In this document: one piece after another, positions 10,138 through 37,051 of the stretch
Position numbering within the stretch: position 1 is the first letter of the stretch
How the letters are laid out: each line of letters begins with the position of its first letter
DNA from: an uncultured Clostridia bacterium
GTDB taxonomy: Bacteria; Acidobacteriota; Aminicenantia; UBA2199
Assembly: GCA_964479735.1 (NCBI GenBank)
Contig: CAYZNT010000009.1
Span: 41,349-105,348 of the forward strand
Length of the DNA: 64,000 nucleotides
Reading direction: 5' to 3'
The notes under the pieces: model-generated
Told to the model about the DNA's origin: nothing
The model's input: the letters and a program-made list of their open reading frames with translations, nothing else
Database searches by the model: none
Translations under genes and position numbers: made by a program

Positions 10138-10146
10138 GGAGTGCCG

Positions 10147-10682: not shown

Positions 10683-10698
10683 CACGAGGAGGAAGACA

Positions 10699-14641: not shown

Positions 14642-15479
14642 GGGGTTGCGGCGGCAGGTGGACGCCGAGGTGCTGCGCGGGCTCGATCCGGCCCGGGGCG
14701 CCCTGGAGGCGGCCATGCACTACGCCCTGGCCATCGGCGGCAAGCGGCTGCGCCCGCTGCTCTTCCTCTCCCTGCTCGACGGCCTGGATGCCGGCGGTGA
14801 CCGTCATGTCGACGTGGCCGCGGCCATCGAGATCATCCACACCTACTCGCTCATCCACGACGACCTGCCGTGCATGGACGACGACGACTTCCGCCGCGGC
14901 CAGCCGACCGTGCACAAGCGTTTCGGGGAGGCGGTGGCGCTGCTGGCCGGCGACACCCTGCTGACGCTGGCCTTCGAAAAGATCGCCGCCAGCCGGCTGG
15001 TGCCGCGCCACGGCATGGCCGTCATGCGCCTGGTCACCCGGGCCATCGGCCTGTCGGGCATGGCCGGCGGCCAGGCCCTGGACCTGGAGTTCAGCGGCGA
15101 CCGCGCCGCCATCGAGCCGATCCACCTCCTCAAGACCGCCGCCCTGATCCGGGCCGCCCTGCTGGCGGCCGCCGAGATCGCCGGCGCCACCCGCTCCCGG
15201 CGCCGGCACCTGGAGGAGGCGGGAACCGACATCGGGCTGGCCTTCCAGCTGGCCGACGACCTGCTCGACGTCACCGGCGACGAGCGCGAGGTCGGCAAGA
15301 AACTGCGCAAGGACCAGTCCAACCGCAGTCCCAACGCCGCCCTCTTCTGGGGGGTGGACGAGGTGCGCCGGCGCATCGACGAACGCTACGCCGCCGCCCG
15401 GCGCCACGTGGCCGCCGCCGGCATCGCGTTCCCGCCGTTCCTGCAGCTCCTCAGCGACATGGTCTACCGGAGCCGGTGA
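14625..15479 (+). CDS. ispA: Farnesyl diphosphate synthase / geranyltranstransferase
   Basis: Both Asp-rich motifs are present: LIHDDLPCMDDDDFRRG and FQLADDLLD. Confidence 0.9.
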   Translation: MKDYLEGLRRQVDAEVLRGLDPARGALEAAMHYALAIGGKRLRPLLFLSLLDGLDAGGDRHVDVAAAIEIIHTYSLIHDDLPCMDDDDFRRGQPTVHKRFGEAVALLAGDTLLTLAFEKIAASRLVPRHGMAVMRLVTRAIGLSGMAGGQALDLEFSGDRAAIEPIHLLKTAALIRAALLAAAEIAGATRSRRRHLEEAGTDIGLAFQLADDLLDVTGDEREVGKKLRKDQSNRSPNAALFWGVDEVRRRIDERYAAARRHVAAAGIAFPPFLQLLSDMVYRSR

Positions 15480-17389
15480 TCGCCGTGCCGCTGCTCGACG
15501 CCATCCACTCTCCCGCCGACCTGCGCCGCCTCTCGATCGAAGAAATGCGGGCGCTGGCCGAAGAGATCCGCGCCCTGATCATCGAGGTGGTGGCCCGCAA
15601 CGGCGGCCACCTCTCCTCCAACCTGGGGGCAGTGGAGCTGACCCTCGCGTTGCACCGCGAGTTCGAGGCCCCCCGCGACCGCATCATCTGGGACATCGGC
15701 CACCAGTGCTACACCCACAAGATCGTCACCGGGCGCCGCCCGCGCATGGGCACCATCCGCACCCGCGGCGGGCTGCTCGGCTTTCCCGACCGCGACGAGA
15801 GCGAGTACGACGTGGTCAACACCGGCCACGCCTCGACGTCGCTGGGCTTCGCCGCCGGGCTGGCCATGGCCCGGGACCGGGCGGGGAGCGACGGGCACAT
15901 CGTCGCCGTGGTCGGCGACGGGGCGTTGACCGGCGGGGTGGCGCTGGAGGCGCTGAACCACATCGGCCAGCTGCGCCCGCCCCTGATCATCGTGCTCAAC
16001 GACAACAAGATGTCCATCTCGCCCAACGTCGGCGCCATATCCAAGCACCTGAACTACCTGGCCCTGGGCCGCCCCTACATCCGCTTCAAGGAAGTGCTGC
16101 ACCGCATCCTGACGGCGATCCCGCTGGTGGGCCGGGGGCTCTTCCAGCTGGCGCGCAAGGTGGAGATCCTGGCCCGCACCATGATGGTGCCCGGCTCCCT
16201 GTTCGACGAGCTCGGCATCAAGTACATCGGCCCGATCAACGGCCACGACCTGCGCGAGCTGCTCAAGGAGTTCCGCGAGGCCAAGGCCTACGACGTCCCG
16301 GTCCTGCTGCACGTCGTCACCCGCAAGGGCCGGGGCTACGAGCCGGCCGCGGACAATCCCAGCTCCTTCCACTCCTCGTCGCCGTTCAACATCAGCAACG
16401 GGCAGTTCCTCAAGAAGGAGGCGCACGTCTCCTACTCGGAAGTGTTCGGCCGCACGGCCGCCCGCCTGGTGGCGCTCGACCCGCAGACCGTCGCCCTCAC
16501 CGCCGCCATGCCGGAGGGAACGGGGCTGGACGCCGTGCAGCGCCAGTTCCCCGAGCATTTCTTCGACGTCGGCATCGCGGAGCAGTACATGTTCGATTTC
16601 GCCGGCGGCCTGGCGCTGGCCGGCCGGCGGCCGGTGGTCGGCGTCTACTCCACCTTCCTGCAGCGGGCCCTCGACCAGGTCATCCACGACATCTCGCTGA
16701 TGAACCTTCCGGTGCTGGTCGGGCTGGACCGCGCCGGCCTGGTCGGAGGCGACGGCCCCACCCACCAGGGGCTGTACGATATCGCCATGCTGCGCCCGGT
16801 GCCCAACCTGCTGCTGCTGGCGCCGCGCGACGAGAACGAGCTGCAGCACATGCTCTACACCGCCTTCCGGCAGAAGAAGCCGGCCTTCGTCCGCTTCCCC
16901 AAGGAGCCGGCGCGGGGCACCCCCCTGGACGGCGAGCTGCGGGAGCTGCCCGTGGGGCGCGCCGAGGTGATGCGACCCGGCAGCGCGGCCACCATCCTGG
17001 CGGTCGGGCCGCTGGTGTGGCGCGCGCTGCAGGCGGCCGAGCGACTGCACCGGCGGTTGGGTCTCGACATCGAAGTGGTCGACGTGCGCTGGATCAAGCC
17101 GCTCGACGAAGAGCTGCTGAAGGCGCGGGCGGCCGCCGCACGGCCGCTGGTGACGGTCGAGGACGGCGCCCTGGCCGGCGGCTTCGGCACCATGGTGCGC
17201 GAGCGGATCGACGCCCTGGGTTTTCCCGGCGTCCGCCTGCTGCGCATCGGCGTGGCGGAAGAGGTCGTGCCGCTGGCGTCGCGCGCGGAACTGCTGGCCC
17301 GCTACGGGCTGGACGCGGAAGGCATCGAGCGGCAGGTCGGCGAGTTCCTGGTTCCGCCCCCGTTCCGACCCGTCCCGGCGTCGCCTTGA
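15476..17389 (+). CDS. dxs: 1-deoxy-D-xylulose-5-phosphate synthase
   Basis: GTG start overlaps the ispA stop (GTGA). GGHLSSNLGAVELTLALH and the GDG...N TPP motif are present. About 637 aa. xseAB-ispA-dxs is a classic operon. Confidence 0.93.
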   Translation: MIAVPLLDAIHSPADLRRLSIEEMRALAEEIRALIIEVVARNGGHLSSNLGAVELTLALHREFEAPRDRIIWDIGHQCYTHKIVTGRRPRMGTIRTRGGLLGFPDRDESEYDVVNTGHASTSLGFAAGLAMARDRAGSDGHIVAVVGDGALTGGVALEALNHIGQLRPPLIIVLNDNKMSISPNVGAISKHLNYLALGRPYIRFKEVLHRILTAIPLVGRGLFQLARKVEILARTMMVPGSLFDELGIKYIGPINGHDLRELLKEFREAKAYDVPVLLHVVTRKGRGYEPAADNPSSFHSSSPFNISNGQFLKKEAHVSYSEVFGRTAARLVALDPQTVALTAAMPEGTGLDAVQRQFPEHFFDVGIAEQYMFDFAGGLALAGRRPVVGVYSTFLQRALDQVIHDISLMNLPVLVGLDRAGLVGGDGPTHQGLYDIAMLRPVPNLLLLAPRDENELQHMLYTAFRQKKPAFVRFPKEPARGTPLDGELRELPVGRAEVMRPGSAATILAVGPLVWRALQAAERLHRRLGLDIEVVDVRWIKPLDEELLKARAAAARPLVTVEDGALAGGFGTMVRERIDALGFPGVRLLRIGVAEEVVPLASRAELLARYGLDAEGIERQVGEFLVPPPFRPVPASP

Positions 17390-17414
17390 CATCGAGGCGG
17401 GCTTCGTTTACGAT
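17386..17414 (+). promoter_or_regulatory. Consensus sigma70 promoter (TTGACA, 17 bp spacer, TACGAT). Its -10 ends 6 nt before the ATG at 17421, implying a leaderless transcript.
   Basis: TTGACA at 17386-17391 and TACGAT at 17409-17414. No Shine-Dalgarno sequence is possible in the 6-nt gap. Confidence 0.6.
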
Positions 17415-17420: not shown

Positions 17421-17756
17421 ATGATCGTCGGATTCAACACCGATATCAAGTACCGCAGCGAAGTCTTCCACATCCAGACCGAAGATAAGGGCGCCAACAA
17501 CCCGCTCATCGAGACCCTGGTCTACCTGCACGGCGAGATCCTGCTCTCGCGCCGCCTCTCCTACGCCCAGTTGATCGATTCCACCGAGAAGGTGAAGAAG
17601 ATCAAGGCGATGATGAAGACCCAGCACGACCAGGTCATCAACGAGCTCAAGAACGGGAATTTCTCCCACCTCCTGCAGATGGACACCCAGAGCATCGAGG
17701 ACAAGACGCTCGACGAGATGGTGATCGACTACCTGATGAATCCCACCAGCAACTGA
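17421..17756 (+). CDS. Hypothetical protein, 111 aa, unrecognised family
   Basis: Clean ORF with host-like codon usage (high GC3), sitting between dxs and polA. I recognise no motif in it. Confidence 0.55.
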   Translation: MIVGFNTDIKYRSEVFHIQTEDKGANNPLIETLVYLHGEILLSRRLSYAQLIDSTEKVKKIKAMMKTQHDQVINELKNGNFSHLLQMDTQSIEDKTLDEMVIDYLMNPTSN

Positions 17757-17760: not shown

Positions 17761-20448
17761 ATGGCGGATCGACTCCTGCTGATAGACGGCATGTATCTGG
17801 CGTTCGCCTCGTTCTACGCCAACCCGCAGATGCGCACCCTGGAGGGGCTCCCCACCGGCGCCGTCTTCGGGTTCGTCTCGCGCACCGAGGCGCTGCTGCG
17901 GGAGCTGCAGCCCGGGCGGGTGGCCGCCGCCTTCGACTCGCGCGAGGAGAACTTCCGCAAGAAGCTCTACCCGGCCTACAAGGAGGGGCGCCAGCAGGCG
18001 CCCGAGGACCTGATCGCCCAGCTGCCGGACATCGCCGAGTACCTGGCGCAGCGCGGCATCCCGCGCCTCGAAGCGCCCGGCTGGGAGGCCGACGACATCA
18101 TCGCCTCGCTGTCTCGGCGGCACGCCGCCGACGGCGGCGAAACGGTCATCTTCTCGGCCGACAAGGACCTGTTCCAGCTGCTCGGCCCGCGCGTGGCGGT
18201 GTTCCATCCCAAGCTCAAGCGCCTGCTGCGGGCCGAGGAGCTGCCGGCATTCTTCGGCGTGCAGCCGGAGCAGGTGGCCGATTTCCTGACCTTGACCGGC
18301 GACGCCTCCGACAACGTGCCGGGGGTGGCCGGGGTGGGGGAGAAGACGGCCTTGAAGCTGATCGCACGCTTCGGCTCCCTGGACGCCCTGCTCGCCCGGA
18401 TGCCGGAGCTGGAGGAGAAGACCCGCCGCAAGATCGAGGCCGCCGCGGCCGAGATCCCGCTGTGGCGGCAGCTGCTCGACCTGCAGCGGGTGCCGGAGGC
18501 GCCGGTGCAGGTTCCGCCGCCGTTTGCCGACCGCCCCGGGCCGGGGCTGGCCGGGCTGTATCGCCGCCTCTCCTTCCAGAGCCTGCTGCGCAACCTGGAG
18601 GGGGAAGGGAGCGCGCCGGCGATTGCCGCGGAGGACCCCGTGGTGCCGGTGACCGTCGTGCGGGACCGCGCCGGGCTGCGCCGGGTGGCCGGTCGGATGG
18701 CGACCGCAGCCGGTGCCGCCATCGACGTGGAGACCACCGGTTTGGATGCGGCGCAGGCCCGGCTGGTCGGCCTCTCCGTCTCCTTCGCGGGCGAGGGCTA
18801 CTACATCCCGCTCCGGGCCCCCGAAGACGAAGCGGGTCCCCTGCCGGGGGAAGACGACCTGCGCGCCGAACTCGGGCCGGCGCTGGCCGACCCGCGCCTC
18901 GGCAAGACCGGCCACAACCTCAAGTTCGACCGGCTGCACCTGCGCCGGGCCGGCCTGGACCTGAACGGGGTGGCGGACGACACGATGATCATGTCCTACC
19001 TTCTCTTTCCCAACCGCCGCGCCCATCACCTGAAGGAGCTCACGGCCGAATTCCTCGGCCGCCGGCAGACGGAGTACCGCGAGCTGGTGGGCAAGGGGCG
19101 GGAGGAGCGGCCGCTCGACCAAGTGCCGCTGGCCCGCGTCGCCCGCTACTGCGTGGACGATTCCGCCCTGTCGCTGCGCCTGGCCGATGCCCTCCGGCCG
19201 CGCCTGGAGGAGGGCGGGTTGCTCGGCTTGTACCGCGACGTGGAATTGCCGCTGCTGCCGGTCCTCGGCGACATGGAGGAGATCGGGGTGCGGGTCGACC
19301 GCGGCTTCCTCCGGCGGGCGGGGGCGGTCCTGGGCGGACGGCTGGCGGAGCTGGAACGGGAGGTGCACCGGCTGGCGGGCTTCGAGTTCAACCTCAACTC
19401 GCCCCAGCAGCTCGGCGCGCTGCTGTTCGAAAAGATGAACCTCCCCCAGGGCAAGAAAACGCGCAAGACGGGCACCTGGTCTACCGACGGCGAGGTGCTC
19501 AACGAGCTGCGCGGCGTCCCGCTGGTGGAGAAGGTCATCGAGCACCGGGCCATCAAGAAGCTGCTGTCCACCTACGTCGAGGCGCTGCTCGCCGGGCTGG
19601 ACGAAAACGACCGCGTGCACACCTCCTTCAACCAGACCGTCACCGCCACCGGCCGCCTCTCCTCGTCCAACCCCAACCTGCAGAACATCCCGGTGGGCGA
19701 GACGGCCGGGCTGGAGCTGCGCCGCGCCTTCGTGGCCGAGCCGGGCTGGCGCCTGCTGTCGGCCGACTACTCGCAGATCGAGTTGCGGGTGATGGCCCAC
19801 TTCGCCGCCGACCCCCGGCTGACCGAGGCCTTCGCGGCGGGGCGCGACATCCACCAGCACACGGCCGACCTGGTCTTCTCCGGAGATGTTTCCGTGCCGG
19901 CGCGAGAGCGGCGGCGCCGGGCCAAGATCGTCAACTTCTCCATCATCTACGGCAGCGGCCCCTTTTCGCTCTCCAAGGAGCTCGGCGTCCCGGTCGCCCA
20001 GGCGAAGGCCTTCATCGACCAATACTTCGCCACCTACCACGGCGTGCGCCGCTTCATCGACCAAACCATCGCCGCGGCGCAGCGGACGCCCGAGGTGCGC
20101 ACCCTGCTCGGCCGGGTGCGGCCCATCCCGGAGATCCAGAGCGCCAACCGCACGGTGCGCGAGAACGGCCAGCGCATGGCCGTCAACACCATCATCCAGG
20201 GTTCGGCGGCCGACATCATCAAGCTGGCCATGATCCGCATCCACCGCCGCCTGGCCGGCATGAGGAGCCGGCTGTTGCTGCAGGTGCACGACGAGCTGGT
20301 GTTCGAGTGCCCACCCGACGAAGAGGAGCCGCTGGCCGGGCTGGTGCGCCAGGAGATGGAGGGTGCCGCCGCCCTGGCGGTGCCGCTGCGGGTCTGCGTC
20401 CGCTGCGGAGCCAGCTGGGCCGGGATGGCCGAGCGGCCGCCGGCCTGA
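17761..20448 (+). CDS. polA: DNA polymerase I
   Basis: 895 aa with 5'-3' exonuclease, 3'-5' exonuclease and polymerase domains (RRAKIVNFSIIYG, QVHDELVFE). Confidence 0.95.
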   Translation: MADRLLLIDGMYLAFASFYANPQMRTLEGLPTGAVFGFVSRTEALLRELQPGRVAAAFDSREENFRKKLYPAYKEGRQQAPEDLIAQLPDIAEYLAQRGIPRLEAPGWEADDIIASLSRRHAADGGETVIFSADKDLFQLLGPRVAVFHPKLKRLLRAEELPAFFGVQPEQVADFLTLTGDASDNVPGVAGVGEKTALKLIARFGSLDALLARMPELEEKTRRKIEAAAAEIPLWRQLLDLQRVPEAPVQVPPPFADRPGPGLAGLYRRLSFQSLLRNLEGEGSAPAIAAEDPVVPVTVVRDRAGLRRVAGRMATAAGAAIDVETTGLDAAQARLVGLSVSFAGEGYYIPLRAPEDEAGPLPGEDDLRAELGPALADPRLGKTGHNLKFDRLHLRRAGLDLNGVADDTMIMSYLLFPNRRAHHLKELTAEFLGRRQTEYRELVGKGREERPLDQVPLARVARYCVDDSALSLRLADALRPRLEEGGLLGLYRDVELPLLPVLGDMEEIGVRVDRGFLRRAGAVLGGRLAELEREVHRLAGFEFNLNSPQQLGALLFEKMNLPQGKKTRKTGTWSTDGEVLNELRGVPLVEKVIEHRAIKKLLSTYVEALLAGLDENDRVHTSFNQTVTATGRLSSSNPNLQNIPVGETAGLELRRAFVAEPGWRLLSADYSQIELRVMAHFAADPRLTEAFAAGRDIHQHTADLVFSGDVSVPARERRRRAKIVNFSIIYGSGPFSLSKELGVPVAQAKAFIDQYFATYHGVRRFIDQTIAAAQRTPEVRTLLGRVRPIPEIQSANRTVRENGQRMAVNTIIQGSAADIIKLAMIRIHRRLAGMRSRLLLQVHDELVFECPPDEEEPLAGLVRQEMEGAAALAVPLRVCVRCGASWAGMAERPPA

Positions 20449-20457
20449 GAGCCCATC

Positions 20458-21366
20458 GTGGACGGCCCCGTGGTCATCAGCGGCGCCTCGGGCCTGGTCG
20501 GCCGCGCTCTCTGCCGGCTGCTGGCGGCGGAAGGCCGGGAGGTGGTCGCCCTCTCGCGGCGGCCCGGTTCCCTTCCCGGCGTCGCCGCCTCCGTCACCTG
20601 GGACGAGCTGCGAAGCAACGGCTGGACCGGCCGGTTGGACGGGGCCGACGCCGTCGTCCACCTGGCCGGGGCCACCATCGCCGAGCGCTGGAGCGCCGCC
20701 CGCCGCCGCCTCATCCTCGACAGCCGGGCCGGCAGCGGGAGGCTGCTGGCCGAGGCGATCGCCGCCGCGCCGCGCCGCCCGCAGGTGTTCCTCCAGGCCT
20801 CGGCCGCCGGCTATTACGGCTCGCGCGGCGACGAGGTGCTGACCGAGGAGTCTCCGCCGGGAAGCGGCTTCCTGGCCGACGTCTGCCGGCAGTGGGAGGC
20901 GTCGACCGCCCCGCTGGCGGCGCTCGGCGTGCGCCACGTGGTGGCCCGCAGCGCCATGGTGCTGGACGCCGCGGCGGGGGCGCTGCCACGCCTGGTGCGG
21001 CCATTCCGCTGGGGCGCCGGGGGCCGGCTGGGCGGCGGGCGGCAGTGGGTGGCCTGGATCCACCTGCGGGACGAGGTCAAGGCCCTGCGCTTTCTCCTCG
21101 CCGATGAACGCTGCGCCGGGGCCTTCAACCTGGCCGCCCCGGGCACGCTGCGCCAGCGCGATCTGGCGCGCCTCCTCGGCCGGCAACTGGGGCGCCCCGC
21201 CTGGCTGCCCGCACCGGCGCCGCTCCTGCGCCTGCTGCTGGGCGGGATGGCCGACGAACTGTTGCTGGCCAGCCAGCGCATCCACCCGCGCCGGCTTCTG
21301 GAAGCCGGGTTCCAGTTCGGCCATGCCTCGCTGGCGGACGCCCTGGCGGCTGTCGTTCTCCGCTGA
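20458..21366 (+). CDS. TIGR01777/YfcH-family NAD-dependent epimerase-like protein (DUF1731 C-terminus)
   Basis: GASGLVGRAL Rossmann motif, ...VVHLAGATIAERW, and the C-terminal RIHPRRLLEAGFQFGH motif typical of YfcH-like proteins. Confidence 0.75.
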   Translation: MDGPVVISGASGLVGRALCRLLAAEGREVVALSRRPGSLPGVAASVTWDELRSNGWTGRLDGADAVVHLAGATIAERWSAARRRLILDSRAGSGRLLAEAIAAAPRRPQVFLQASAAGYYGSRGDEVLTEESPPGSGFLADVCRQWEASTAPLAALGVRHVVARSAMVLDAAAGALPRLVRPFRWGAGGRLGGGRQWVAWIHLRDEVKALRFLLADERCAGAFNLAAPGTLRQRDLARLLGRQLGRPAWLPAPAPLLRLLLGGMADELLLASQRIHPRRLLEAGFQFGHASLADALAAVVLR

Positions 21367-21470
21367 TTCCCGGTTCGCGCCGGCTTGAAAATTCCCCCGA
21401 ATTTGTGTCTAATGGCTTCGCCTATCCCGGTGACGAGCCGGGGACCGGAGAAACGCGGATGGAGGCCAGC

Positions 21471-23675
21471 ATGGGACGCAACATGCGGAACCTGGGGATG
21501 CAGGTGGTCGTCCTTTTGCTTTGCGCTCCGCTGGGGCACGCCCAGCGGCAAGATGACCTCTTCACCATGTCTCTGTCCGACCTGATGAACGTGCGGGTGG
21601 TGACCGCCAACCGGATCACCCAGGACGTCGCCGATATCCCGGCCAGTGTCGTGGTCATCGACCGCCAGGAGATCCGCCGGCGCGGATACACCACGCTGGT
21701 CGAGATCCTTCAGCACATTCCCGGATTCTTCCTCGTCAACCAGTACAACTGGAGCGGCGTGACCGGTTTCGGCGTGCGCGGCTACTTTACCGAGGGCGCC
21801 TTCGCCCACGTGGTGATCCTGGTCGACGGCTGCCGGGTGCTGCGCGAGGGGTACATCAACCAGTACGTGCTGGCTCGCATCGCGCCACCGGTGGAGGCCA
21901 TCGACCGCATCGAGGTGATCCGCGGTCCCATGTCGGTGACGTACGGGCAGGACGCCTTCTTCGGAGCGGTCAACATCATCACCTGGCAGCGGGACAAGGG
22001 CCGGCCGGAGCAGGTGGCCGCGGCCTGGGCGGGCGCCGGCGGCGAGCGGGGAGTCGCCGTGCGCGCCGAACGCGCGCGCCCGGACCTGTCGTTCGTCTTC
22101 AACGCCGCGCTGCGCCACGACGGCGGGATCGACGTCCCCTACCGCTCGATGACCCGCAACCCCCCGGTGACGCTGCCCGGCGGCCATTCCACCTCCTACC
22201 TGCGCTCCGTCGGGCTGGCCGACGATGCCGTCACCGGCGGGCAGCTGGCCGCCAGCGGCGGCTACGCGTCGCTGGGCGTGGACTACCGCGGTCTCCGCGT
22301 CACCATCGCCCATGCCGCCGACGCCCACGGCACCCTCTGGCGCGCCCCCTCAAGCAGCCCGGACGGCAGCCCCGTGCGGATCTACGGCTCCGACGTCAGC
22401 GCCCAGTACGAACTGCCTCTCGGCGGCGGCTGGTCGTTGACCGGGTACGGCCAGTACGCGGATTACCGCTCCTCCACGCTCTACCGCCTGAACGGCGACG
22501 ATCACTTCGGCGAGTCGTTCGTCCACTCGGCCATCCTCTACGGCGCGCTCGACCTCCACTCCCGGTCGAACCGGCGCCTCAATCTCAGCGGCGGACTGTC
22601 GGTCGAACGGATGAGCGATGCCGGGGACGACGTCGACATCCCGGCCATCCCGAACGTGGGCAACAGCTCGTGGCGCCTGAAGGATGGGGACGCGATCCAC
22701 TCCGCCCAGGCGTACGTCCAGCTGCGCTGGCGCCCATGGCCGCGCCTGCTGCTGGTGGGCGGCGGCCGGCTGATCCGATTCGGCGATTTCACCTACCAGC
22801 GGCTGCGGGATCGCGGAGGCCCCGGCTTCGCCGTGGAGGAGAAGCGAACGCGCAACGAGCGCCCTTCGCTGGCCAGCCAGCTGGCCGCCATCGTCCGCCT
22901 CGGCGAGCGCCACGCGGTGAAGGGCTTGCTGGGCACGGCCGTCACCGTGCCCAACCTGCGCCAGTACACGACCCGGCTGGATTTCGCTCTCGCGCACCCC
23001 GGCGTCGATATCCGCCAGCTGCCCGAGTTGCAGCCGGCGCATATCACCACCCTGGAAATGCAGTACCTCGGCTCCCCCTGGCGGCAGGGTAGCGTGAGCC
23101 TGTCCCTGTTCGCCAACTTCCTGCAGAAGCTCATCGTCTCGTCCGGCACCGTGCTGCCCGATGGCCGCTACGTCGTCGTGACCCAGAACAGCGGGCGCAT
23201 CCGCACGCTCGGCGCCGAGGCCGGAGTCAAGGCGAGGCCCCTGCCTTCCCTGGACCTCGACGTCGGCCTCTGCCTGCAGCGATCGCGCAACCGCGAACCG
23301 GGCTTCGCCGGGATCGCCGTGCCGTACTCCCCCGGTCTGCTGGCGAACGCCAGCGCCGTCTGGCGGTTGACCCCCGACGTCAGCGCCTCCCTCGGTGGAA
23401 TCTTCGTCGGGCGCATGGAGAGCAGCTGGCAATGGGCGGGGCCGGACCCGCAGCTGGGCCGGAGGGTGAGCGACGCCGTCCCGGCGTACCTCTCGGTGGA
23501 CGCCAATTTTCGGGTGGAGCGCCTGTTCGGCAGCCGTCTCTTCCTTTCCCTGCACGGCTCCAACCTGTTCGGTGCCGATATCCGATATCCCGCCGATCCC
23601 GGCAACGCATGGGCCGACAAGGGGCTCGCCGGCCCTGGCCGGCGCTGGCTCGTCTCGGTCGGTTGCCGCTATTAG
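21471..23675 (+). CDS. TonB-dependent outer-membrane receptor
   Basis: Signal peptide, TonB-box-like DLFTMSLSDLMNVRVV, plug domain (VVVIDRQEIRRRGYTTLVEIL, IEVIRGPMSVTYGQDAFFGAVNIIT) and a C-terminal beta-barrel ending ...VGCRY. Confidence 0.85.
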   Translation: MGRNMRNLGMQVVVLLLCAPLGHAQRQDDLFTMSLSDLMNVRVVTANRITQDVADIPASVVVIDRQEIRRRGYTTLVEILQHIPGFFLVNQYNWSGVTGFGVRGYFTEGAFAHVVILVDGCRVLREGYINQYVLARIAPPVEAIDRIEVIRGPMSVTYGQDAFFGAVNIITWQRDKGRPEQVAAAWAGAGGERGVAVRAERARPDLSFVFNAALRHDGGIDVPYRSMTRNPPVTLPGGHSTSYLRSVGLADDAVTGGQLAASGGYASLGVDYRGLRVTIAHAADAHGTLWRAPSSSPDGSPVRIYGSDVSAQYELPLGGGWSLTGYGQYADYRSSTLYRLNGDDHFGESFVHSAILYGALDLHSRSNRRLNLSGGLSVERMSDAGDDVDIPAIPNVGNSSWRLKDGDAIHSAQAYVQLRWRPWPRLLLVGGGRLIRFGDFTYQRLRDRGGPGFAVEEKRTRNERPSLASQLAAIVRLGERHAVKGLLGTAVTVPNLRQYTTRLDFALAHPGVDIRQLPELQPAHITTLEMQYLGSPWRQGSVSLSLFANFLQKLIVSSGTVLPDGRYVVVTQNSGRIRTLGAEAGVKARPLPSLDLDVGLCLQRSRNREPGFAGIAVPYSPGLLANASAVWRLTPDVSASLGGIFVGRMESSWQWAGPDPQLGRRVSDAVPAYLSVDANFRVERLFGSRLFLSLHGSNLFGADIRYPADPGNAWADKGLAGPGRRWLVSVGCRY

Positions 23676-23686
23676 GCGCCGTGGGC

Positions 23687-24277
23687 ATGGCGCCGAGCCT
23701 CCGGACGTTTTTCCCCCGGCGGGGCCGTTCCCCGCGGGATCGGCGGCGAGCCTGGCTGCCACTGGCCGCCGGGCTGGCCGCTTTCGCCCTGTCGGCCAGT
23801 TCCCCGCAGGCCGACGGCGCGGCGGACGAATACCTGGTCAAGGCTGCGTTTCTGGAAAAGTTTTGCCGCTATGTCGAGTGGCCGCCCCGGGGGGAGGGCG
23901 AAGGGGCCTTCGACATCGCCGTCATCGGCGAAAACCCGTTCGGCGGAGCGCTTCGACAGCTGGCCGAGAGCGTGCGCATCCAGAACCGGGCGATCCGCCT
24001 GCACGACGTGAAGACCCTGGCGGACCTCGGCTCCTGCCAGTTGCTGTTCGTGGCCCGCTCGGAGTCCGCGCGTCTCGCCGGCATCGTGGATTCCCTGCGG
24101 GCGAAGCCCGTCCTGCTCGTCGGGGACAGCCCCGGGTTCGCGGCCGCCGGCGTGCACATCAACTTCTACATCAGCGGGCAGGGATCGGTTCGCTTCGAGG
24201 TCAACCCGGATCGGTTTGCCCAGTCGGGACTGAGGGTGGACACCTACCTGCTCGAATACGCCCGGGTGGTCCGATGA
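23687..24277 (+). CDS. YfiR-like periplasmic protein (DUF4154 family)
   Basis: Signal peptide then FLEKFCRYVEWP...FDIAVIGENPF...LLFVARSE...VHINFYISGQGSVRFEVNPDRFAQSGLRVDTYLL, matching the YfiR/DUF4154 consensus. Start could equally be the GTG at 23681. Confidence 0.7.
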   Translation: MAPSLRTFFPRRGRSPRDRRRAWLPLAAGLAAFALSASSPQADGAADEYLVKAAFLEKFCRYVEWPPRGEGEGAFDIAVIGENPFGGALRQLAESVRIQNRAIRLHDVKTLADLGSCQLLFVARSESARLAGIVDSLRAKPVLLVGDSPGFAAAGVHINFYISGQGSVRFEVNPDRFAQSGLRVDTYLLEYARVVR

Positions 24278-26946
24278 TCCGTCTGCCGCGGTGGATCCGT
24301 GACATGTCCATCCGGTTCAAAATCGTGTTCGTCGTCCTGCTGGTTTCCACCCTGACCAGCGCAATCAGCGCGCTGATCAGCTACGCCGCCATGGTGCGAA
24401 AGCACGCCGATTCGCTCCTCGGTATCACCGTGGCCAATACCCGCCTCGTCGCCCAGTACTGCGTGATGCCGCTCGAGTTCGCGGACGCTGCCAAGGCCGA
24501 GGACGTGCTCGGCAAGCTCCGTGCCCTCAGTTACATCCAAGACGGCCTCGTCCTCGGGCCCGACGGCCGCGTCTTCGCGTCCTTCCACCGGGCCGACGGG
24601 GGCCCCCAAAGACCGCCCCCGGGCATGCCGGTGGACGGCTACCTGGCCGAAGCCGACTTCCTGCACGTGCAGACCCCGGTGGCCTACCGGGGCCGGGTGT
24701 ACGGGAGCGTCTACCTGCGGGTCAGCACCGACAGCCGGGCCATCGCCCGCAAGACCCTCTTCACCTGGATGGCCATCCTGGCCTCCATGTCGGTTTTGGC
24801 GGTGCTTCTGGCGCTGCGCTTGCAGCGCATCGTCTCCGTCCCGATCCTCCGCCTCACCCGCTTCACCCATGATCTGGTCGAGCAAAGGGGGACCGGGGCG
24901 CGCATCGAGAAATCGGCGGCCGACGAAACGGGCCGGCTCTACGACGCCTTCAACCACATGATCGGCGTGATCCAGTCCCGCGAAGCCGATCTGCGTTCGA
25001 CCACGGAGGAGCTGAACCGGTTTTTCGACATCAGCCTCGACCTGCTGTGCATCGCCGACACCGGCGGTCGTTTCTTGCGCCTCAACAAGGCCTGGGAGAG
25101 GATCCTCGGCTTCCGCGTCGACGAGTTGCTGGCAAAACCTTTCCTCGAGTTCGTGCATCCCGGCGACCTGGCCGCCACCCAGGCGGCGATGGCCGCGCTC
25201 TCGGAAGGCCGGGAAGTGGTCGACTTCATCAACCGCTTCCGCTGCCAGGACGGGGCCTACCGCTGGATCGAGTGGCGCTCGGTGCCGGTTGGCCACCTCA
25301 TCTACGCCGCCGCGCGCGACGTCAGCGAGCGCATGCAGGCCGACGAGGCGATCCGCCGCTCCGAGGAGTTCCTGCGCCAAGTCATCGAGAACGCATCCGG
25401 GGTCCCGTTCCAGCTGGCGTTCGGCGAGGATTTGGGGGCCGGTCACTACACCCAGGTCGGAGCGGGCATCGAGAGGCTCTTCGGGATCAAACCCGACGGT
25501 TTCACCGAGTCCTTCTTCGTCTCCATCGTTCGTGAAACGGTCCTGCGCGTGCCCGGCGTTCCCGCCGATCCCGTCGAGTGCCGCCGGCGCATGCGGGCCG
25601 GCGAGATTTCCCGTTACCGGGCCGACATCCGCGTCCAACTGCCCGACGGCACCGTCAAGTGGGTCAACGACTCCTCGCTCCCCGTGCGCGACCAGGAAAC
25701 CGGACGCGTCGTCGGGGCCATGGGCATCCTGCTGGACATCACCGAGCAGGTGATCCGCGAGGAGGAGGTGCGCCGGCTCAATGTCGAGCTCGAACAGCGC
25801 GTGAGCGAGCGCACGGCCCAGTTCGTCGACGCCAACGAACGGCTGCAGCGTGAAATCGCCGGGCACATGCAGGCCGAGGAGCGCCTCCGCATCTTCCAGC
25901 AATTCGTGGAAGCGTCCGGGCAGGGATTGGGCATGGCCACTCCGGATACCCGGATCATCTACATGAACTCGACCCTGTGCCGCTGGCTCGGCGAGACACC
26001 GGGCGAACCCGCGTCCTGGAAGACGTTTCTTCACTATTATCCGCCGGAAATGCGCGAGCGCCTGCAACACGAGGTGATCCCGGAGGTGCTCCGCGCCGGG
26101 CAGTGGGCGGGCGAGCTGGCGCTGCTCGATCCGCAGGGCAGCCGGATTCCCACCATCGAGAGCTTTTTCGTCATCCGCAACGCGGAGGGTCAGGTCGCCT
26201 ACCTGGCCGACGTGATCACGGACATCTCGGAGCGCAAACGGAGCGAGGAACAACTGAAACGGAACCGCGACCAGCTGGCCAGCGCCAACAAGGAGCTCGA
26301 GAGCTTCGCCTACTCGGTCTCCCACGACCTGCGCGCGCCGTTGCGCGGCATCGACGGCTGGAGCCAGGCGCTCATCGAGGACTACGCGGGGTCCCTGGAC
26401 GCCACGGCGCGCGGCTACCTGGAAACCGTCCGGGGCGAGACGAAACGCATGGCCCAACTGATCGACGCGCTGCTGCAGCTGTCGCGCGTGGCCCGCAGCG
26501 AGATGAAGCGCGTGCCGGTCGACCTGAGCGCGCTGGCCGGCGAGGTGGATGGAGAACTGCGCCTCTCCCAGCCGGAGCGCGACGTCGAGTTCCGGCTGAC
26601 GCCGGGCCTCGATACCGTAGGCGACCGCACGTTGCTGCTGGTGCTGATGCGCAATTTGCTTGGCAACGCCTGGAAGTTCAGCGCCGGGCGCCGGGGGGCG
26701 ATCGTCGAATTCGGCCGAAGGGCGGGTCCCGAGGCGGCGTTCTTCGTGCGCGACAACGGCGCCGGTTTCGACATGGCGTTTTCCGGCAAGCTGTTCACGC
26801 CGTTCCAGCGGCTGCATGGCCAGGAGGAGTTCCCGGGCACCGGCATCGGCCTGGCCACGGTGCAGCGCATCGTTCACCGCCATGGGGGCCGCATCTGGGC
26901 CGAGGGCGAGCCGGGAATCGGGGCGACGTTTTTCTTCACGTTGTGA
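24274..26946 (+). CDS. Sensor histidine kinase with a periplasmic domain between two TM helices, then HAMP, 3-4 PAS/PAC, HisKA and HATPase
   Basis: 890 aa. TM1, an about 150-aa extracytoplasmic region, TM2, LRLTRFTHDL (HAMP), PAS repeats, H-box SHDLRAPLRGIDGWS, and G-boxes at the C-terminus. Confidence 0.85.
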   Translation: MIRLPRWIRDMSIRFKIVFVVLLVSTLTSAISALISYAAMVRKHADSLLGITVANTRLVAQYCVMPLEFADAAKAEDVLGKLRALSYIQDGLVLGPDGRVFASFHRADGGPQRPPPGMPVDGYLAEADFLHVQTPVAYRGRVYGSVYLRVSTDSRAIARKTLFTWMAILASMSVLAVLLALRLQRIVSVPILRLTRFTHDLVEQRGTGARIEKSAADETGRLYDAFNHMIGVIQSREADLRSTTEELNRFFDISLDLLCIADTGGRFLRLNKAWERILGFRVDELLAKPFLEFVHPGDLAATQAAMAALSEGREVVDFINRFRCQDGAYRWIEWRSVPVGHLIYAAARDVSERMQADEAIRRSEEFLRQVIENASGVPFQLAFGEDLGAGHYTQVGAGIERLFGIKPDGFTESFFVSIVRETVLRVPGVPADPVECRRRMRAGEISRYRADIRVQLPDGTVKWVNDSSLPVRDQETGRVVGAMGILLDITEQVIREEEVRRLNVELEQRVSERTAQFVDANERLQREIAGHMQAEERLRIFQQFVEASGQGLGMATPDTRIIYMNSTLCRWLGETPGEPASWKTFLHYYPPEMRERLQHEVIPEVLRAGQWAGELALLDPQGSRIPTIESFFVIRNAEGQVAYLADVITDISERKRSEEQLKRNRDQLASANKELESFAYSVSHDLRAPLRGIDGWSQALIEDYAGSLDATARGYLETVRGETKRMAQLIDALLQLSRVARSEMKRVPVDLSALAGEVDGELRLSQPERDVEFRLTPGLDTVGDRTLLLVLMRNLLGNAWKFSAGRRGAIVEFGRRAGPEAAFFVRDNGAGFDMAFSGKLFTPFQRLHGQEEFPGTGIGLATVQRIVHRHGGRIWAEGEPGIGATFFFTL

Positions 26947-26960
26947 GCAGGGAGGGAAGC

Positions 26961-27410
26961 ATGGAGACACGAAGCATTTTGCTGGTGGAGGACAATCCCA
27001 GCGACATCAAGCTCACGCAGCGGGCGCTGAGCAAGAACCACGTGGCCAATGAACTGCTGGTCGCCAGAGACGGCCAGGAGGCGCTCGACTATCTCTTCGG
27101 CACCGGCGCCCATGCCGGCCGCGATGTTTGCCGGCAGCCGGCGCTGATCCTTCTCGACCTCAAGCTGCCCAAGGTCGACGGCCAGGCCGTGCTGGCGCGG
27201 ATCAAGGGAGACGAGCGCACCCGGAGCATCCCGGTGGTGGTGCTGACGACGTCGCGCGAGGACCGCGACATCGAATCCTGTTATGCGCTGGGCGCCAATT
27301 CCTACATCGTCAAGCCGGTCGATTTCGACCAGTTCGTGCGCGCCGTCGCCGAGATGCAACTGTACTGGCTGGTGCTGAACGAGTCGCCGCGCCCCTGCAC
27401 GGGAACGTGA
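26961..27410 (+). CDS. Single-domain response regulator (CheY-like REC)
   Basis: LLVEDNPSDIKL...LILLDLKLPKVDG...SYIVKP, 149 aa. Its stop overlaps the next start (TGATG). Confidence 0.85.
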   Translation: METRSILLVEDNPSDIKLTQRALSKNHVANELLVARDGQEALDYLFGTGAHAGRDVCRQPALILLDLKLPKVDGQAVLARIKGDERTRSIPVVVLTTSREDRDIESCYALGANSYIVKPVDFDQFVRAVAEMQLYWLVLNESPRPCTGT

Positions 27411-29347
27411 TGGGCCAGCCGCTGCGCTTGCTGATCGTCGAGGACAACGCGTCCGACGCCGACCTGATCCAGCGCCACCTGGCCCGGGGCGGCTTCGATC
27501 TGAAGGAGGCGCGGCGGGTGGAAACGGCCGACGGGCTGGCCGGGGCGCTGGCGGATGCGGAGTGGGACCTGGTCGTCTGCGACTACCATCTTCCGCACCT
27601 GGACGCGCCCACGGCCTTGCGCATCGTCCGCGAGAGCGGCCGGGACGTCCCCTTTCTCATCGTCTCCGGCACCGTGGGAGAGGACATCGCCGTCGACATG
27701 ATGAAAAGCGGCGTGCACGACTACCTGCTCAAGGACAACCTGGCGCGGCTGGTGCCCGCCGTGCAGCGGGAGTTGCGCGAGGCGGTGGAGCGCCGCGAGC
27801 GCCGGCAGGCGGAAGCCGCGCTGCGCGCCAACGAAGAACGGTTCCGCGACCTGGCCCGGCTGCTCGACCTGGCCCGCGACGCCATCCTGGTATGCGATCT
27901 CGATGACCGCATCTCCTACTGGAACCGGGGCGCCGAGAGGCTCTACGGCTGGACAACGGAGGAGATCCAGGGGCAGAGCATTTGCGGGCGGCTGGTCACG
28001 GACCCGGAGTTGTTCGCCGGTGCCAAGCGGGAGCTGCTGGCGTCCGGAGAGTGGCGGGGCGAGATGCGCCACGTCACCCGCTCCGGGACACCGGTCAGCG
28101 TGAGCAGTTCCTGGAGCCTGGTGCGGGATGAAAACGGCCAGCCCCGGTCGGTGCTGGTCATCAACACCGACGTCACCCAGCGCAAGCTGCTGGAGGCGCA
28201 GCTGCTGCAGGCCCAGAAGATGGAGGCCATCGGCCGGCTGGCCGGGGGGGTGGCCCACGATTTCAACAACCTGCTGACGGTCATCCTGGGTTTCACCCAG
28301 CTGCAGCTGATGCGGGACGACCTGGACGCCGACGCGCGCGCCAACCTGCAGCACATCCTGCAGGCCGCCGAGGGGGCCAGCGGTTTGACCCGCCAGCTGC
28401 TCACCTTCAGCCGAAAGCAGGTGATGCAGCCGCGCGATCTCGACCCGCTCCAGCTCGTCCGCAACCTGGGACGGATGCTGGAACGGGTCATCGGCGAGCC
28501 CATCGCCCTGGCCATCGAGGGCGCGCCCGACTCCATGGCCATCCGGGCCGATCCCCACATGATCGAGCAGGTCGTGCTCAACCTGGTGCTCAACGCCCGC
28601 GACGCCATGCCCAACGGGGGCAGAATCACCCTGACCGTCGCGCCTCAGGCCATCGACGCTTCCCGGCTGGCCGACCATCCGCGCGGGCGCGTGGGAGAGT
28701 TCGTCTGCCTGGAGGTGACGGACACGGGGTGCGGCATGCCGGAGGAGGTGCTGAACCGGCTGTTCGAGCCGTTCTTCACCACCAAGGAGGCGGGCAAGGG
28801 GACCGGGCTGGGTCTGGCCACCGTGTACGGCATCGTCGAGCAGCACGGGGGCTGGCTGGAAGTCTCGAGCCGGGTCGGCGCCGGCTCCGTCTTCCGCGTT
28901 TTCCTCCCCGCGGCGACCGCCGCCGACCGCGAGAGCCCGAATGATGCCAGCGGCGGCCAGGTCCGCGGCGGGAGCGAGGCGCTGCTGCTGGTCGAAGACG
29001 AACAGGCGGTGCGCCTCATGGCCCGGGAGTTTTTGACCGGGCTGGGGTACCGGGTGTGGGAGGCGGATGGCGGAAGGTCCGCCCAGGAGGTCTGGGCGGC
29101 GCATGGGAGGGAGATCGACCTGCTGGTCACCGACATCGTCATGCCCGGGGGAGTGAACGGCATCGAGCTGGCCGCCGCCATGCGCCGCGGGCGGCCGGAC
29201 CTGGGCGTGGTCTACATCAGCGGTTACGCCGACGGCGGCGGAAATGCCCGCAACCCCAAGCTGGTCGAAGGCGAGAATTTCGTCTCCAAGCCGTTCAGCC
29301 TGGGTTTTCTGGCGGCCACGGTGCGCCGGGCGCTCGATCGGCGGTGA
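27410..29347 (+). CDS. Hybrid sensor histidine kinase (REC-PAS-HisKA-HATPase-REC)
   Basis: N-terminal REC (LLIVEDNASDADL...DLVVCDYHLP), a PAS domain, H-box GGVAHDFNNLLTVI, G-boxes DTGCGMP and GKGTGLGLA, and a C-terminal REC (LLLVEDEQAVR...DLLVTDIVMPG). Confidence 0.88.
   Translation: MGQPLRLLIVEDNASDADLIQRHLARGGFDLKEARRVETADGLAGALADAEWDLVVCDYHLPHLDAPTALRIVRESGRDVPFLIVSGTVGEDIAVDMMKSGVHDYLLKDNLARLVPAVQRELREAVERRERRQAEAALRANEERFRDLARLLDLARDAILVCDLDDRISYWNRGAERLYGWTTEEIQGQSICGRLVTDPELFAGAKRELLASGEWRGEMRHVTRSGTPVSVSSSWSLVRDENGQPRSVLVINTDVTQRKLLEAQLLQAQKMEAIGRLAGGVAHDFNNLLTVILGFTQLQLMRDDLDADARANLQHILQAAEGASGLTRQLLTFSRKQVMQPRDLDPLQLVRNLGRMLERVIGEPIALAIEGAPDSMAIRADPHMIEQVVLNLVLNARDAMPNGGRITLTVAPQAIDASRLADHPRGRVGEFVCLEVTDTGCGMPEEVLNRLFEPFFTTKEAGKGTGLGLATVYGIVEQHGGWLEVSSRVGAGSVFRVFLPAATAADRESPNDASGGQVRGGSEALLLVEDEQAVRLMAREFLTGLGYRVWEADGGRSAQEVWAAHGREIDLLVTDIVMPGGVNGIELAAAMRRGRPDLGVVYISGYADGGGNARNPKLVEGENFVSKPFSLGFLAATVRRALDRR
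27840..29347 (+). repeat. Copy 1 of a duplicated PAS-HisKA-HATPase-REC module, paralogous to 31780-33287
   Basis: Protein identity is about 75-80% across the whole module. DNA cores 28141-28440 and 28690-28870 are about 95-97% identical to 32081-32380 and 32630-32790. Confidence 0.85.
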
Positions 29348-29366
29348 AATCGCGGGGGAAAAGGGA

Positions 29367-32300
29367 ATGCCCAAAACCAAGGAACCGAGCGGACGCCATG
29401 CCGGCCCCCGTCCCCGAGGCGTCAAGCCGGCAACCGGAACGGCTCCGGGAACCCGGAAACGCCCGGCGCGGCGGCCTGACCTCGCCTTTTTTTCCAGCGT
29501 GGTGGAAGACCTGCACTGCATCGCGGGCCTGGATGGGAGCCTGGCGTACGTCAACGAGGCCTGGGAGCGGGTACTGGGATTCCGCCGGGTCGAACTCGAG
29601 GCGGGGCGGTTCTTCGATTACGTCCACCCCGACGACCGGGAGCGCACGCAGGAGGCGGTTTCCCGGCTCCGGACGCGGCGGCGGGTCATCGACTTCGTCA
29701 ACCGCTACCGCTGCCGCGACGGGTCCTACCGCTGGCTGGAGTGGCGCGCCGCCGTCCGCGGCCGGGAAATCTACGCCACCGCCCGCGACATCACCGGACG
29801 GCGCCAGGCGGAGGAGGCGCTGCGGCTGAGCGAAGAGCGCCTGCGTCTGGCCCACAAGGCCACCAACGACGTGGTGTGGGACTGGGACATCGCCAACGAC
29901 TCCCAGCGCTGGAACGAGGCGGGGGCGGTGGTCTTCGGCTGGACGGAGATCGTCGAGCGCCCGGTCACCGCCGCCTGGTGGCTGGAGCGGGTCCATCCCG
30001 ATGACCGGGAGCGGGTAAACCGCGGCTTCTGTGCCGTGCTGGAAGATCCGCAGGCCTTCAGCTGGGAGGACGAGTACCGGTTCCGCCGCGCGGACGGGAG
30101 CTACGCCCGGGTCGCCGACCACGGGTTCGTGATGAGGGATGCCGGGGGCCAGGCGGCCCGCATGGTCGGCGCCATGCAGGACATCAGCCTGCGCCGGCAG
30201 CAGGAGGAGGCCCTGCGCGCCAGCGAGGCCTTCCGCTCCCTGCTGCTCGACACCCTGCCCATCCCCTTCTTCTTCAAGGACACGGAGGGCCGCTACCAGC
30301 AGTGCAACCGCGCCTTCGAGTCCTTTCTGGGAACGACCCGCGAGCGGATCATCGGCAAGAGCGTATTCGATGTCAGTCCCCCGGAGCGGGCCATGGTCTA
30401 CCATGCCCAGGACGCGGTGCTCTTCGAGAACGTGGGCACGCAAATCTACGAGTCCCAGGTGCAGACCGCCCAGGGGATGCGCGACGTGGTGTTCCACAAG
30501 GCGAGCCTCACGGCCGGTGACGGGACCATCATCGGCCTGATCGGCGTCATCCTGGACATCTCCGACCGCCGGCGCGCCGCGGAGGCCCTGCAGGCTAGCG
30601 AGGAGAAACTGCACCGGCTGTTCGACACCATGGACCAGGGCGTGGTCTACCACGGCGCCGACGGCCGAATCACCGACGCCAACCCGGCGGCCCTGCGAAT
30701 CCTCGGCCTCTCCCTGGAGCAGATCCTGGGCCGGACGTCCCTCGATCCCCGCTGGCGGACCGTTCGCGAAGACGGCTCGCCCTTCCCCGGCGATCAGCAT
30801 CCTGCCTCGGTCGCCCTGCGCAGCGGGCAACCGGTCCGCGACGTCATCATGGGGGTGTTCCATCCCGGGGAGAACGAGACCCGCTGGATCCTGGTCGGCG
30901 CCAGCCCCCTCTGCCGGGCTGGCGAGACCATCCCCTTCCAGGCGATCGCGACGTTCACCGACATCACCGCCCGCATGCGGGCCGAGACCGCCCTCGCCGA
31001 GCGGGAGTTCTGGCTGAGCGAATCGCAGCGGGCGGGCCGCATCGCCACCTATCACCTGGACATCGCCGCCGACCGGTGGCGTTGTACACCGGTCCTGGAG
31101 GAGATTTTCGGCATTCCCCCCGATTATCCCCGGACGGTCCGCTCCTGGGACGAGCTCGTCCACCCCGAGCAGCGGAAGTCGATGCTGGCCTACTTTCGAG
31201 AGGAGGTGATCGGCAAACGCCAGCCGTTCGACCGCGAGTACCGGATCCGGCGGCCGCTGGACGGCCAGGAACGCTGGGTCTACGGCCGCGGCGAGCTGCA
31301 GCTGGACGAGCACGGCGAACCGGTGGCCATGATCGGCACCATCCAGGATGTCACCGGGCGCAAGCGGGTGGAGGAGGAGTTGCGCCACAGCGAGCGGCGC
31401 TTGAGGGCCATCGTGGACTCCGCCCCGTTCGGGGCCCATATCTACCAGCTGGATGAGGATGGCCGGCTGGTGTTCGTCGGCGCCAACCGGGCCGCCGACG
31501 CCATCCTGGGCGTCGACCACCAAGACTTCGTCGGCCAGACCATCGAGCAGGCGTTCCCGCCGCTGCGCGGAACGAGGATCCCCGACGCCTATCGCCGTGT
31601 GGCCCGGGGCAGCGGCAGTTACGTGGCCGACCAGGTGGACTACGACGGGAAGACCATCCGCGGCGCCTTCGAGGTCCATGCCGTGCAGATCGGGCCGGCG
31701 CGCATGGCCGCCTTCTTCCGGGACATCACCGAGCGCGTGCGGGCCGAGGCCGCGTTGCGTGAGAGCGAGGCGAAATACCGCCACCAGGCCAGCCTGCTCG
31801 ACATGGCCCACGACGCCATCGTGGTCCGCGACCTGGACGACCGCATCGTCTACTGGAACCAGGGCGCCGAGCGGCTGTACGGGTGGACGGCCGCCGAGAC
31901 CATCGGGCAAGGCGTTCGCGGACGGTTCTTCCGTGACCCGTCCCGGTTCGACGAGGCCAAGCGCCGGCTGCTGGCCGAAGGCGAGTGGAGCGGGGAGATC
32001 CAGCACCTCACCCGAAGCGGCGAGGAGATCACGGTCAGCAGCCGCTGGAGCCTGATGCGCAGCGCCGACGGCCAACCCGAGGCGGTGCTGGTCATCAACA
32101 CCGACGTCACCCAGCGCAAGAAGCTGGAGTCGCAGCTGCTGCAGGCCCAGAAGATGGAGGCCATCGGCCGGCTGGCCGGGGGGGTGGCCCACGATTTCAA
32201 CAACCTGCTGACGGTCATTCTGGGTTTCACCCAGCTGCAGCTGATGCGGGACGACCTGGACCCGGATGCGCGCGGCAACCTGCAGCACATCCTGCAGGCC

Positions 32301-34186: not shown

Positions 34187-34188
34187 GC

Positions 34189-36946: not shown

Positions 36947-37008
36947 GGGAGGCCCTCCGCCTCCATTATAGGGAAGGGGGATGGAAAAGTAAAGGTGCCG
37001 CCGCGGAG

Positions 37009-37037: not shown

Positions 37038-37051
37038 GACGGTTCGGCGCC

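Follow-up and report, generated by a model that had tools for sequence, protein, structure and literature searches.

In a 64,000-nucleotide stretch of contig CAYZNT010000009.1 (assembly GCA_964479735.1; hereafter the window), three genes on the + strand encode, in this order, a TonB-dependent receptor (TBDR), a YfiR-like periplasmic protein of the DUF4154 family, and a sensor histidine kinase with a periplasmic CHASE8 domain. It was found that this gene neighbourhood is conserved at the family level. The three genes possibly constitute a YfiR/YfiN-type module for envelope signalling that has a kinase output and in which a ligand imported by the TBDR is sensed via the YfiR-like/CHASE8 pair; I favour this reading tentatively, rating it a little below an even chance. 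An earlier note on this DNA had claimed this gene content and order, which the open reading frames (ORFs) and Pfam domains bear out. It had also regarded the three genes as one module and had named a lack of neighbourhood conservation among relatives as the sign against it; the 80 DUF4154 loci described below show such conservation. Its observation is confirmed, and its interpretation is partly supported.

A genome scan (one genome per species) with an alignment of eight sequences gave more than 580 relatives, of which the best 80 loci, 34-46% identical, were analysed. These loci belong to Acidobacteriota, Planctomycetota, Verrucomicrobiota, Nitrospirota, Desulfobacterota, Bacteroidota, Pseudomonadota, Gemmatimonadota, Calditrichota, Ignavibacteriota, and Armatimonadota. 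A TBDR gene lies within 6 kb of the DUF4154 gene in 63 of the 80 loci by strict phmmer search, or in 71 by looser BLAST clustering, and it is nearly always immediately upstream and co-directional. When the search was confined to the flanking ORFs, a same-strand TBDR gene was found directly upstream in 56 loci and a gene for a CHASE8-type sensor directly downstream in 68. Most of these sensors (54 of the 68) have a kinase core; GGDEF-EAL, HD-GYP, and methyl-accepting chemotaxis protein (MCP) outputs also occur among the 80 loci. In the sampled DUF4154 branch, the gene is thus nearly always sandwiched between a TBDR and a CHASE8 sensor. Where T, Y, and S denote TBDR, YfiR-like, and sensor genes and the arrowheads denote the strand, the architectures over all ORFs include T>Y>S> (41 loci), T>T>Y>S> (7), T>T>Y>Y>S> (2), T<Y>S> (4), T>Y> with a cut-off or diverged sensor (7), and Y>S> (14). 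Among the 14 Y>S> loci, six are truncated upstream, L031 and L045 have weak TBDR matches only, and six lack a TBDR outright. The junction of the Y and S genes ranges from -38 to +20 nt in most of the loci. These neighbourhood counts indicate that the module is real, far beyond chance; TBDRs usually account for about 1-2% of the genes of a genome or fewer. When all ORFs of the 80 loci were clustered against one another, no recurrent partner emerged beyond the TBDR, the YfiR-like protein, and signalling proteins; neither tonB/exbBD nor a fixed response regulator recurred. Among database homologues, the TBDR-DUF4154-CHASE8 order was found in a betaproteobacterial metagenome-assembled genome (MAG), a Vicinamibacterales MAG, and another genome, and one further context has the DUF4154-sensor pair only.

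Some loci have duplicated genes within the module, either T>T>Y>Y>S> (L051 and L082) or T>T>Y>S> (L021, L028, L029, L039, L052, L057, and L062). Two modules lie back to back in L055 and L065, and several MAGs have more than one module on different contigs.

NCBIfam release 20 contains consecutive models for the triad, namely NF053590 (TOL_0244 family TonB-dependent receptor), NF053591 (TOL_0243 family YfiR-like periplasmic protein), and NF053592 (sensor histidine kinase, YfiR-like protein-associated). NF053591 matches 74 of the 80 DUF4154 proteins at E<=1e-36. NF053590 matches 38 of the 56 module TBDRs at E<=1e-150. Against the same model, L087 and L024 score 701 and 770 bits. It was revealed that the module TBDRs are polyphyletic: 39 belong to a TOL_0244-like clade, 10 to a heme-receptor-like clade ("group A"), and 7 to others, in addition to the window's own. 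Within the TOL_0244-like clade and group A, the module TBDRs are 40-65% identical. The modules nearest to that of the window in YfiR-like and CHASE8 similarity (L008, L030, and L038) have non-canonical TBDRs in the same slot. In other words, these modules keep a receptor but exchange its type, and in the window the usual dedicated receptor family is replaced by a TBDR of another clade. No position of the YfiR-like proteins discriminates between the TBDR clades (the maximum mutual information is 0.36 of 0.73 bits). Together with the polyphyly of the TBDRs, this is easier to reconcile with coupling via a diffusible ligand or some generic feature of TBDRs than with a protein interface specific to a clade.

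The YfiR-like protein, the sensor kinase, and the receptor

The DUF4154 protein of the window matches Pfam PF13689 over profile positions 3-143 of 143 (E 3.7e-37; 128 bits against a cut-off of 24.9), and a profile of its relatives matches YfiR chains in the Protein Data Bank (PDB) at 3e-15. An AlphaFold2 (AF2) model with a predicted local distance difference test (pLDDT) score of 85.9 was searched against the PDB with Foldseek. The top 15 matches are all YfiR chains (4yn7 and 4zhu first) with E values of about 1e-9 and a TM-score, normalised to the target, of about 0.8. Thus, the YfiR-like nature claimed in the earlier note holds at the level of the fold. On the other hand, the protein scores 31.2 bits against the canonical YfiR equivalog NF053586 (sequest_YfiR), below the cut-off of 85, while E. 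coli YfiR as a control matches at 1e-49. The cysteine pairs C71-C110 and C145-C152 of YfiR correspond to A78/C117 and A152/N159 in the window protein. The first pair is kept in 44 of 79 relatives, and the second pair is essentially absent from the subfamily.

The N-terminus of the DUF4154 protein is signal-peptide-like. Residues 1-43 (23687-23815) have three consecutive arginines ahead of the hydrophobic stretch, SPRDRRRAWLPLAAGLAAFALSASSPQA, and judging from this region the protein may be exported via Tat rather than Sec. The next-best fold after YfiR is a 155-aa "Rhodothermus marinus substrate-binding protein" (PDB 6k1w, 6k1x, 6k1y, and 8wgl) with a TM-score of about 0.6. This model-based match hints that single-lobe proteins of the YfiR-like fold can bind small ligands. 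A library of 1.84 billion proteins contains 18,667 cluster representatives of DUF4154 at E<=1e-3. Among the best library matches to the window protein are tandem double-DUF4154 proteins of about 340-390 aa (P0224-P0230 and similar), which look like fused "double YfiR" proteins.

The CHASE8 domain occupies residues 56-148 of the kinase and is flanked by hydrophobic segments at residues 11-41 and 160-192, in line with the transmembrane-periplasmic-transmembrane sensor described previously. The C-terminal part has three PAS domains, HisKA, and HATPase, with no receiver domain and no GGDEF domain. I found that residues 1-249 can be aligned with the E. coli DgcN/YfiN sensor region (BLASTP, 2e-8). 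All 14 sensors in an alignment have a Phe at the position of F69 of the kinase. This residue corresponds to the Phe of the YfiN "AAVVF" motif (EAAVVFAD), which was proposed as the YfiR-binding site (Malone et al. 2012, PMC3375315). By sequence comparison, the YfiR-like protein is homologous to YfiR and the CHASE8 sensor to that of YfiN. Their genes share 4 nt (ATGA), and the TBDR and DUF4154 genes are separated by an 11-nt gap. The sizes of 4 and 11 nt given in the earlier note were right, but the former is an overlap and not a gap.

The TBDR has Plug (9e-20) and TonB_dep_Rec_b-barrel (4e-19) domains by Pfam and ends with a Tyr residue. Its N-terminus has a signal peptide followed by the motif DDLFTMSLSDLMNVRVVTANR with a BtuB-like TonB box. 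In a PDB sequence search, the plug matches those of CirA and BtuB at 1e-18, and VRVVTAN of the TBDR aligns with the TonB-box position of BtuB in this plug match. VRVVTAN is presumably the TonB box. The AF2 model (pLDDT 87.6) matches BtuB, Fiu, and FhuA over the full length in Foldseek, with TM-scores of 0.65-0.83. Pfam gave no hit for an STN signalling domain in the TBDR, and the plug begins about 15 residues past the predicted signal-peptide cleavage site. The generic features of TBDRs (a plug in a barrel of roughly 22 strands, a TonB box, and a C-terminal aromatic residue) are all found. With the TonB-box-like VRVVTAN, conserved plug motifs, a full predicted barrel, and no signalling domain, the protein looks like a working transporter.

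Full-length relatives of the window TBDR (P0105 onward) are 28-40% identical. A pre-plug motif, F-x-M-S-L-E-E-L-M-N-V-x-I/V-T-T-A-G-K, lies at 21546-21611 in the window (TBDR residues 26-47) and in the N-termini of P0105-P0139. It is common to a broad TBDR clade, with or without an adjacent YfiR-like gene. I considered the TBDR motif DLxxMSLEELMNVxVTxxxK as a module-specific docking motif and rejected it, as non-module TBDR relatives carry it: the strict pattern is present in 67 of 121 sequences, including P0105 and P0131, neither of which has a DUF4154 gene nearby. The two nearest full-length TBDR relatives adjoin BlaI/BlaR1-like pairs (Penicillinase_R and Peptidase_M56; L089 8506-10751 and L091 2642-4374). 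These receptors may represent a different receptor-linked regulatory arrangement.

Candidate mechanism and alternatives

By analogy with YfiR on YfiN, the most likely role of the secreted YfiR-like protein is to bind the kinase at its periplasmic CHASE8 domain and to fix this domain in one signalling state. The TBDR, taken as co-transcribed, would provide the input by bringing a specific substrate into the periplasm, and the imported substrate would alter the YfiR-like/CHASE8 interaction so that the kinase switches. The phosphate would pass to the adjacent stand-alone receiver, which from its position is likely the first phosphoacceptor of the kinase, and possibly onward to two hybrid kinases. 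Of these, the 645-aa hybrid kinase is possibly downstream in the same pathway, and the membership of the PAS-rich one in the module is uncertain. The earlier note had proposed a relay from ligand uptake through YfiR-like release to kinase activation, which may take place, and a kinase that feeds a hybrid-kinase cascade, which adjacency suggests. Beyond the observed anatomy, homologies, folds, and neighbourhood conservation, I infer the physical interactions, the direction of regulation, and the ligand. Ligand import is favoured because the TBDR looks transport-competent, because receptors of unrelated clades are interchangeable, and because the YfiR-like proteins have no clade-specific signature and the TBDRs no module-specific motif.

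Several points weigh against sensing of an imported ligand by a YfiR/YfiN-type module in the window. The window TBDR matches the module TBDRs over the plug only, at about 100 bits, and none of the six close relatives of this TBDR that were sampled has a DUF4154 neighbour. A TBDR is also missing beside P0002 (49% identity), the nearest relative of the DUF4154 protein that lies on a long contig, so the adjacency in the window genome could be secondary. Since the cysteine pairs of YfiR are missing in the window protein, its regulation need not copy that of YfiR. All three window proteins fall short of the triad models. The YfiR-like protein scores 115.8 bits against NF053591, its best NCBIfam match, narrowly below the cut-off of 125. 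The kinase scores 122.1 bits against NF053592 over residues 12-234 with a cut-off of 194 for this 223-residue N-terminal domain; the model is the best match to the sensor region and third overall, behind kinase-core models. The TBDR scores 80.6 bits against NF053590, over the plug only, with a cut-off of 645. Finally, the three proteins co-diversify only modestly, and species phylogeny confounds the signal. Mantel (mirror-tree) correlations are significant, with r of 0.32-0.35 between the TBDR and its partners and 0.52 between YfiR-like proteins and CHASE8; they were taken as a sign of co-inheritance, not contact.

The kinase might instead be switched at the outer membrane, in a YfiB-like manner. 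The ligand-bound TBDR would capture the YfiR-like protein by a periplasm-exposed element, such as an unfolded TonB box or N-terminal segment, which would free CHASE8 and de-repress the kinase with no need for import. YfiBNR provides a precedent, since its outer-membrane protein sequesters YfiR at the surface that YfiR also uses for YfiN, with beta-strand addition and insertion of an aromatic side chain (PMC4655355). The absence of yfiB from "almost all" distant YfiNR operons (PMC3375315) leaves room for a substitute, and in about 80-88% of relatives a TBDR fills the slot of the outer-membrane partner in a YfiR/YfiN-type operon. Interchangeable TBDR clades would also fit the recognition of a generic TBDR element. 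However, the conserved pre-plug motif is common to non-module TBDRs, and thus no module-specific docking element was found; the lack of TBDR-clade-specific positions in the YfiR-like proteins likewise speaks against capture. I regard sequestration as possible, on the unlikely side.

It is also conceivable, if rather unlikely, that the TBDR is co-expressed cargo and that the YfiR-like/kinase pair senses the envelope or redox state or a periplasmic metabolite alone. A TBDR can be the target of a two-component system, as PfeA is of PfeS/PfeR, and the atypical type of the window TBDR would agree with the cargo reading. YfiR/sensor pairs work without an outer-membrane partner in some lineages (PMC3375315), and a TBDR is lacking in six of the loci with enough upstream sequence, plus L004. 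Against this, the slot, orientation, and short gaps are fixed over more than 10 phyla despite TBDR clade replacement, while cargo is usually less constrained, and two TBDR clades are essentially dedicated to the module context. A coincidence specific to the window, where a two-gene YfiR-like/kinase unit landed beside an unrelated TBDR gene, would agree with the nearest TBDR relatives having no YfiR link (six of six sampled) and with the nearest DUF4154 relative with context having no TBDR. It is improbable in view of the 11-nt gap, the shared strand, and the position as in the canonical triad. A TBDR would be the upstream neighbour by chance in about 1-2% of cases, and the nearest sub-branch (L008, L030, and L038) also has non-canonical TBDRs in that slot.

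On a broader view, the TBDR-YfiR-like-CHASE8 modules could be a second route of TonB-dependent cell-surface signalling, independent of extracytoplasmic function (ECF) sigma factors and widespread across many phyla, Acidobacteriota among them. In this view, the YfiR-like protein would read a generic TBDR state, such as an exposed TonB box or plug segment, and relay it to kinases, cyclases, and chemoreceptors. Such a generic state would make the receptors swappable, as in the window. This generalisation is doubtful. If the TBDR gates the YfiR-like switch, the modules would be a common diderm means of coupling outer-membrane uptake or surface sensing to two-component, cyclic di-GMP (c-di-GMP), and chemotaxis outputs, above all in soil and sediment phyla that have been little studied, and would explain the replacement of YfiB in the many "YfiNR-only" systems that were noted in 2012. 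Judging from the swapped receptor in the window, the input may be modular, and a modular input would help ligand identification and sensor engineering. The locus is of moderate interest because it offers a testable hypothesis for YfiB replacement and for non-ECF TBDR-linked signalling.

Gene calls and surroundings

Since the G+C content of the window is about 70%, genes were picked via codon-position G+C. For the three genes of the module, an independent gene caller in a public collection gave identical proteins. The features are listed in Table 1. The receiver gene, which lies between the kinase and the hybrid kinases, was overlooked in the earlier note. The start of the 645-aa hybrid kinase gene abuts the stop of the receiver gene, and its product has no transmembrane segment. 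The likely start of the PAS-rich hybrid kinase gene is an ATG with a purine-rich stretch in front.

Table 1. Genes of the module and downstream signalling genes in the window
Feature	Position	Strand	Basis
TonB-dependent receptor (TBDR), 734 aa	21471-23675	+	Pfam Plug and TonB_dep_Rec_b-barrel
DUF4154/YfiR-like periplasmic protein, 196 aa	23687-24277	+	Pfam PF13689
Sensor histidine kinase, 890 aa, TM1-CHASE8-TM2-HAMP-like-3xPAS-HisKA-HATPase (TM, transmembrane segment)	24274-26946	+	Pfam, TM segments
Stand-alone receiver, 149 aa	26961-27410	+	Pfam Response_reg 5e-19; called gene in L001 and L002
Hybrid kinase REC-PAS-HisKA-HATPase-REC, 645 aa	27410-29347	+	Pfam
Large cytoplasmic PAS-rich hybrid kinase (membership in the module uncertain)	~29367-33287	+	Pfam: multiple PAS, HisKA, HATPase, REC

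Upstream of the TBDR gene on the + strand are dxs, polA, and an epimerase/DUF1731 gene. The nearest matches of PolA, at 53-62% identity, put the source among uncultured relatives of Acidobacteriota/Aminicenantes. A promoter and terminator scan of 20300-34500 gave counts at the level of shuffled sequences. The surroundings (1-17400 and 43000-64000) are of a housekeeping nature, with translation genes of the thrS-infC-rplT-pheT type, RNase Y, YmdB, xseA/xseB-ispA-dxs, and hemE, and they also contain a pst-like phosphate ABC transporter and a PhoU-related (PhoU_div) gene. No tonB/exbBD gene was found in the surroundings among the matches listed (25 of 37 Pfam families). Four ORFs have a coding-like codon bias and no Pfam match at E<=0.001: 36065-37465 (-; 466 aa), 37459-37899 (+; 146 aa), 40476-42533 (-; 685 aa), and 17421-17756 (+; 111 aa). 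The 111-aa ORF lies between dxs and polA and was called as a gene; no Pfam hit is recorded for it in the source's other contigs.

Comparison with known systems

A "YfiR-YfiN[PAS/HAMP] core" was reported from Acidobacteria, Opitutus, Geobacter, Rhodothermus, and Desulfobacterium, where it is combined with kinase, HPT, and MCP outputs (Malone et al. 2012, PMC3375315). TonB is mentioned neither in the text of that paper nor in those of its supplements that were searched. The window locus shares with YfiBNR (TpbB) of P. aeruginosa and E. coli a gene for a secreted YfiR-fold protein that lies upstream of, and overlaps, a gene for a transmembrane-periplasmic-transmembrane-HAMP sensor, and the conserved Phe of the YfiN sensor motif is present in the window kinase. 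In contrast, the output in the window is a PAS-rich histidine kinase instead of a GGDEF diguanylate cyclase. The scanned flanking genes have no OmpA domain, so there is no OmpA-like YfiB among them, and a TBDR gene is the first in the operon. The YfiR-like protein also differs in lacking the C145-C152 disulfide and in scoring below the YfiR equivalog cut-off.

The three-gene architecture and its order are the same as in the NCBIfam triad (NF053590-NF053592), while the window TBDR is from another clade and all three window proteins are under the curated cut-offs. In a proteomic study, TOL_0244 was induced 7-fold on the n-C28 alkane and alkane uptake was proposed (PMC6304351). This was the only hit in a literature search on the triad, which found no mechanistic study. 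Thus, the YfiR/sensor-kinase pairing was published in 2012 and the TBDR triad is already catalogued in NCBIfam; the window locus is a divergent example with a swapped receptor.

As in FecA/FecR/FecI, an outer-membrane TBDR is encoded together with signal transduction genes in the window, which makes surface-to-cytoplasm signalling plausible. The earlier note had set the module apart from that paradigm. Indeed, the window TBDR has no STN domain, the output is a His-Asp phosphorelay, and no sigma or anti-sigma factor gene was found among the scanned flanks (three upstream genes, the receiver, the two hybrid kinases, and a glycerate-kinase-like gene); the module is therefore not of the Fec type. 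A comparable logic, in which an outer-membrane importer is combined with a periplasm-facing kinase, is known for PfeA-PfeS/PfeR, PirA-PirS/PirR, and Bacteroides SusC with hybrid two-component systems. A soluble periplasmic partner tunes the sensor domain of a kinase in LuxP-LuxQ and TorT-TorS. Unlike these two-lobe binding proteins, the partner in the window has a single-lobe YfiR fold, and the sensor domain is CHASE8.

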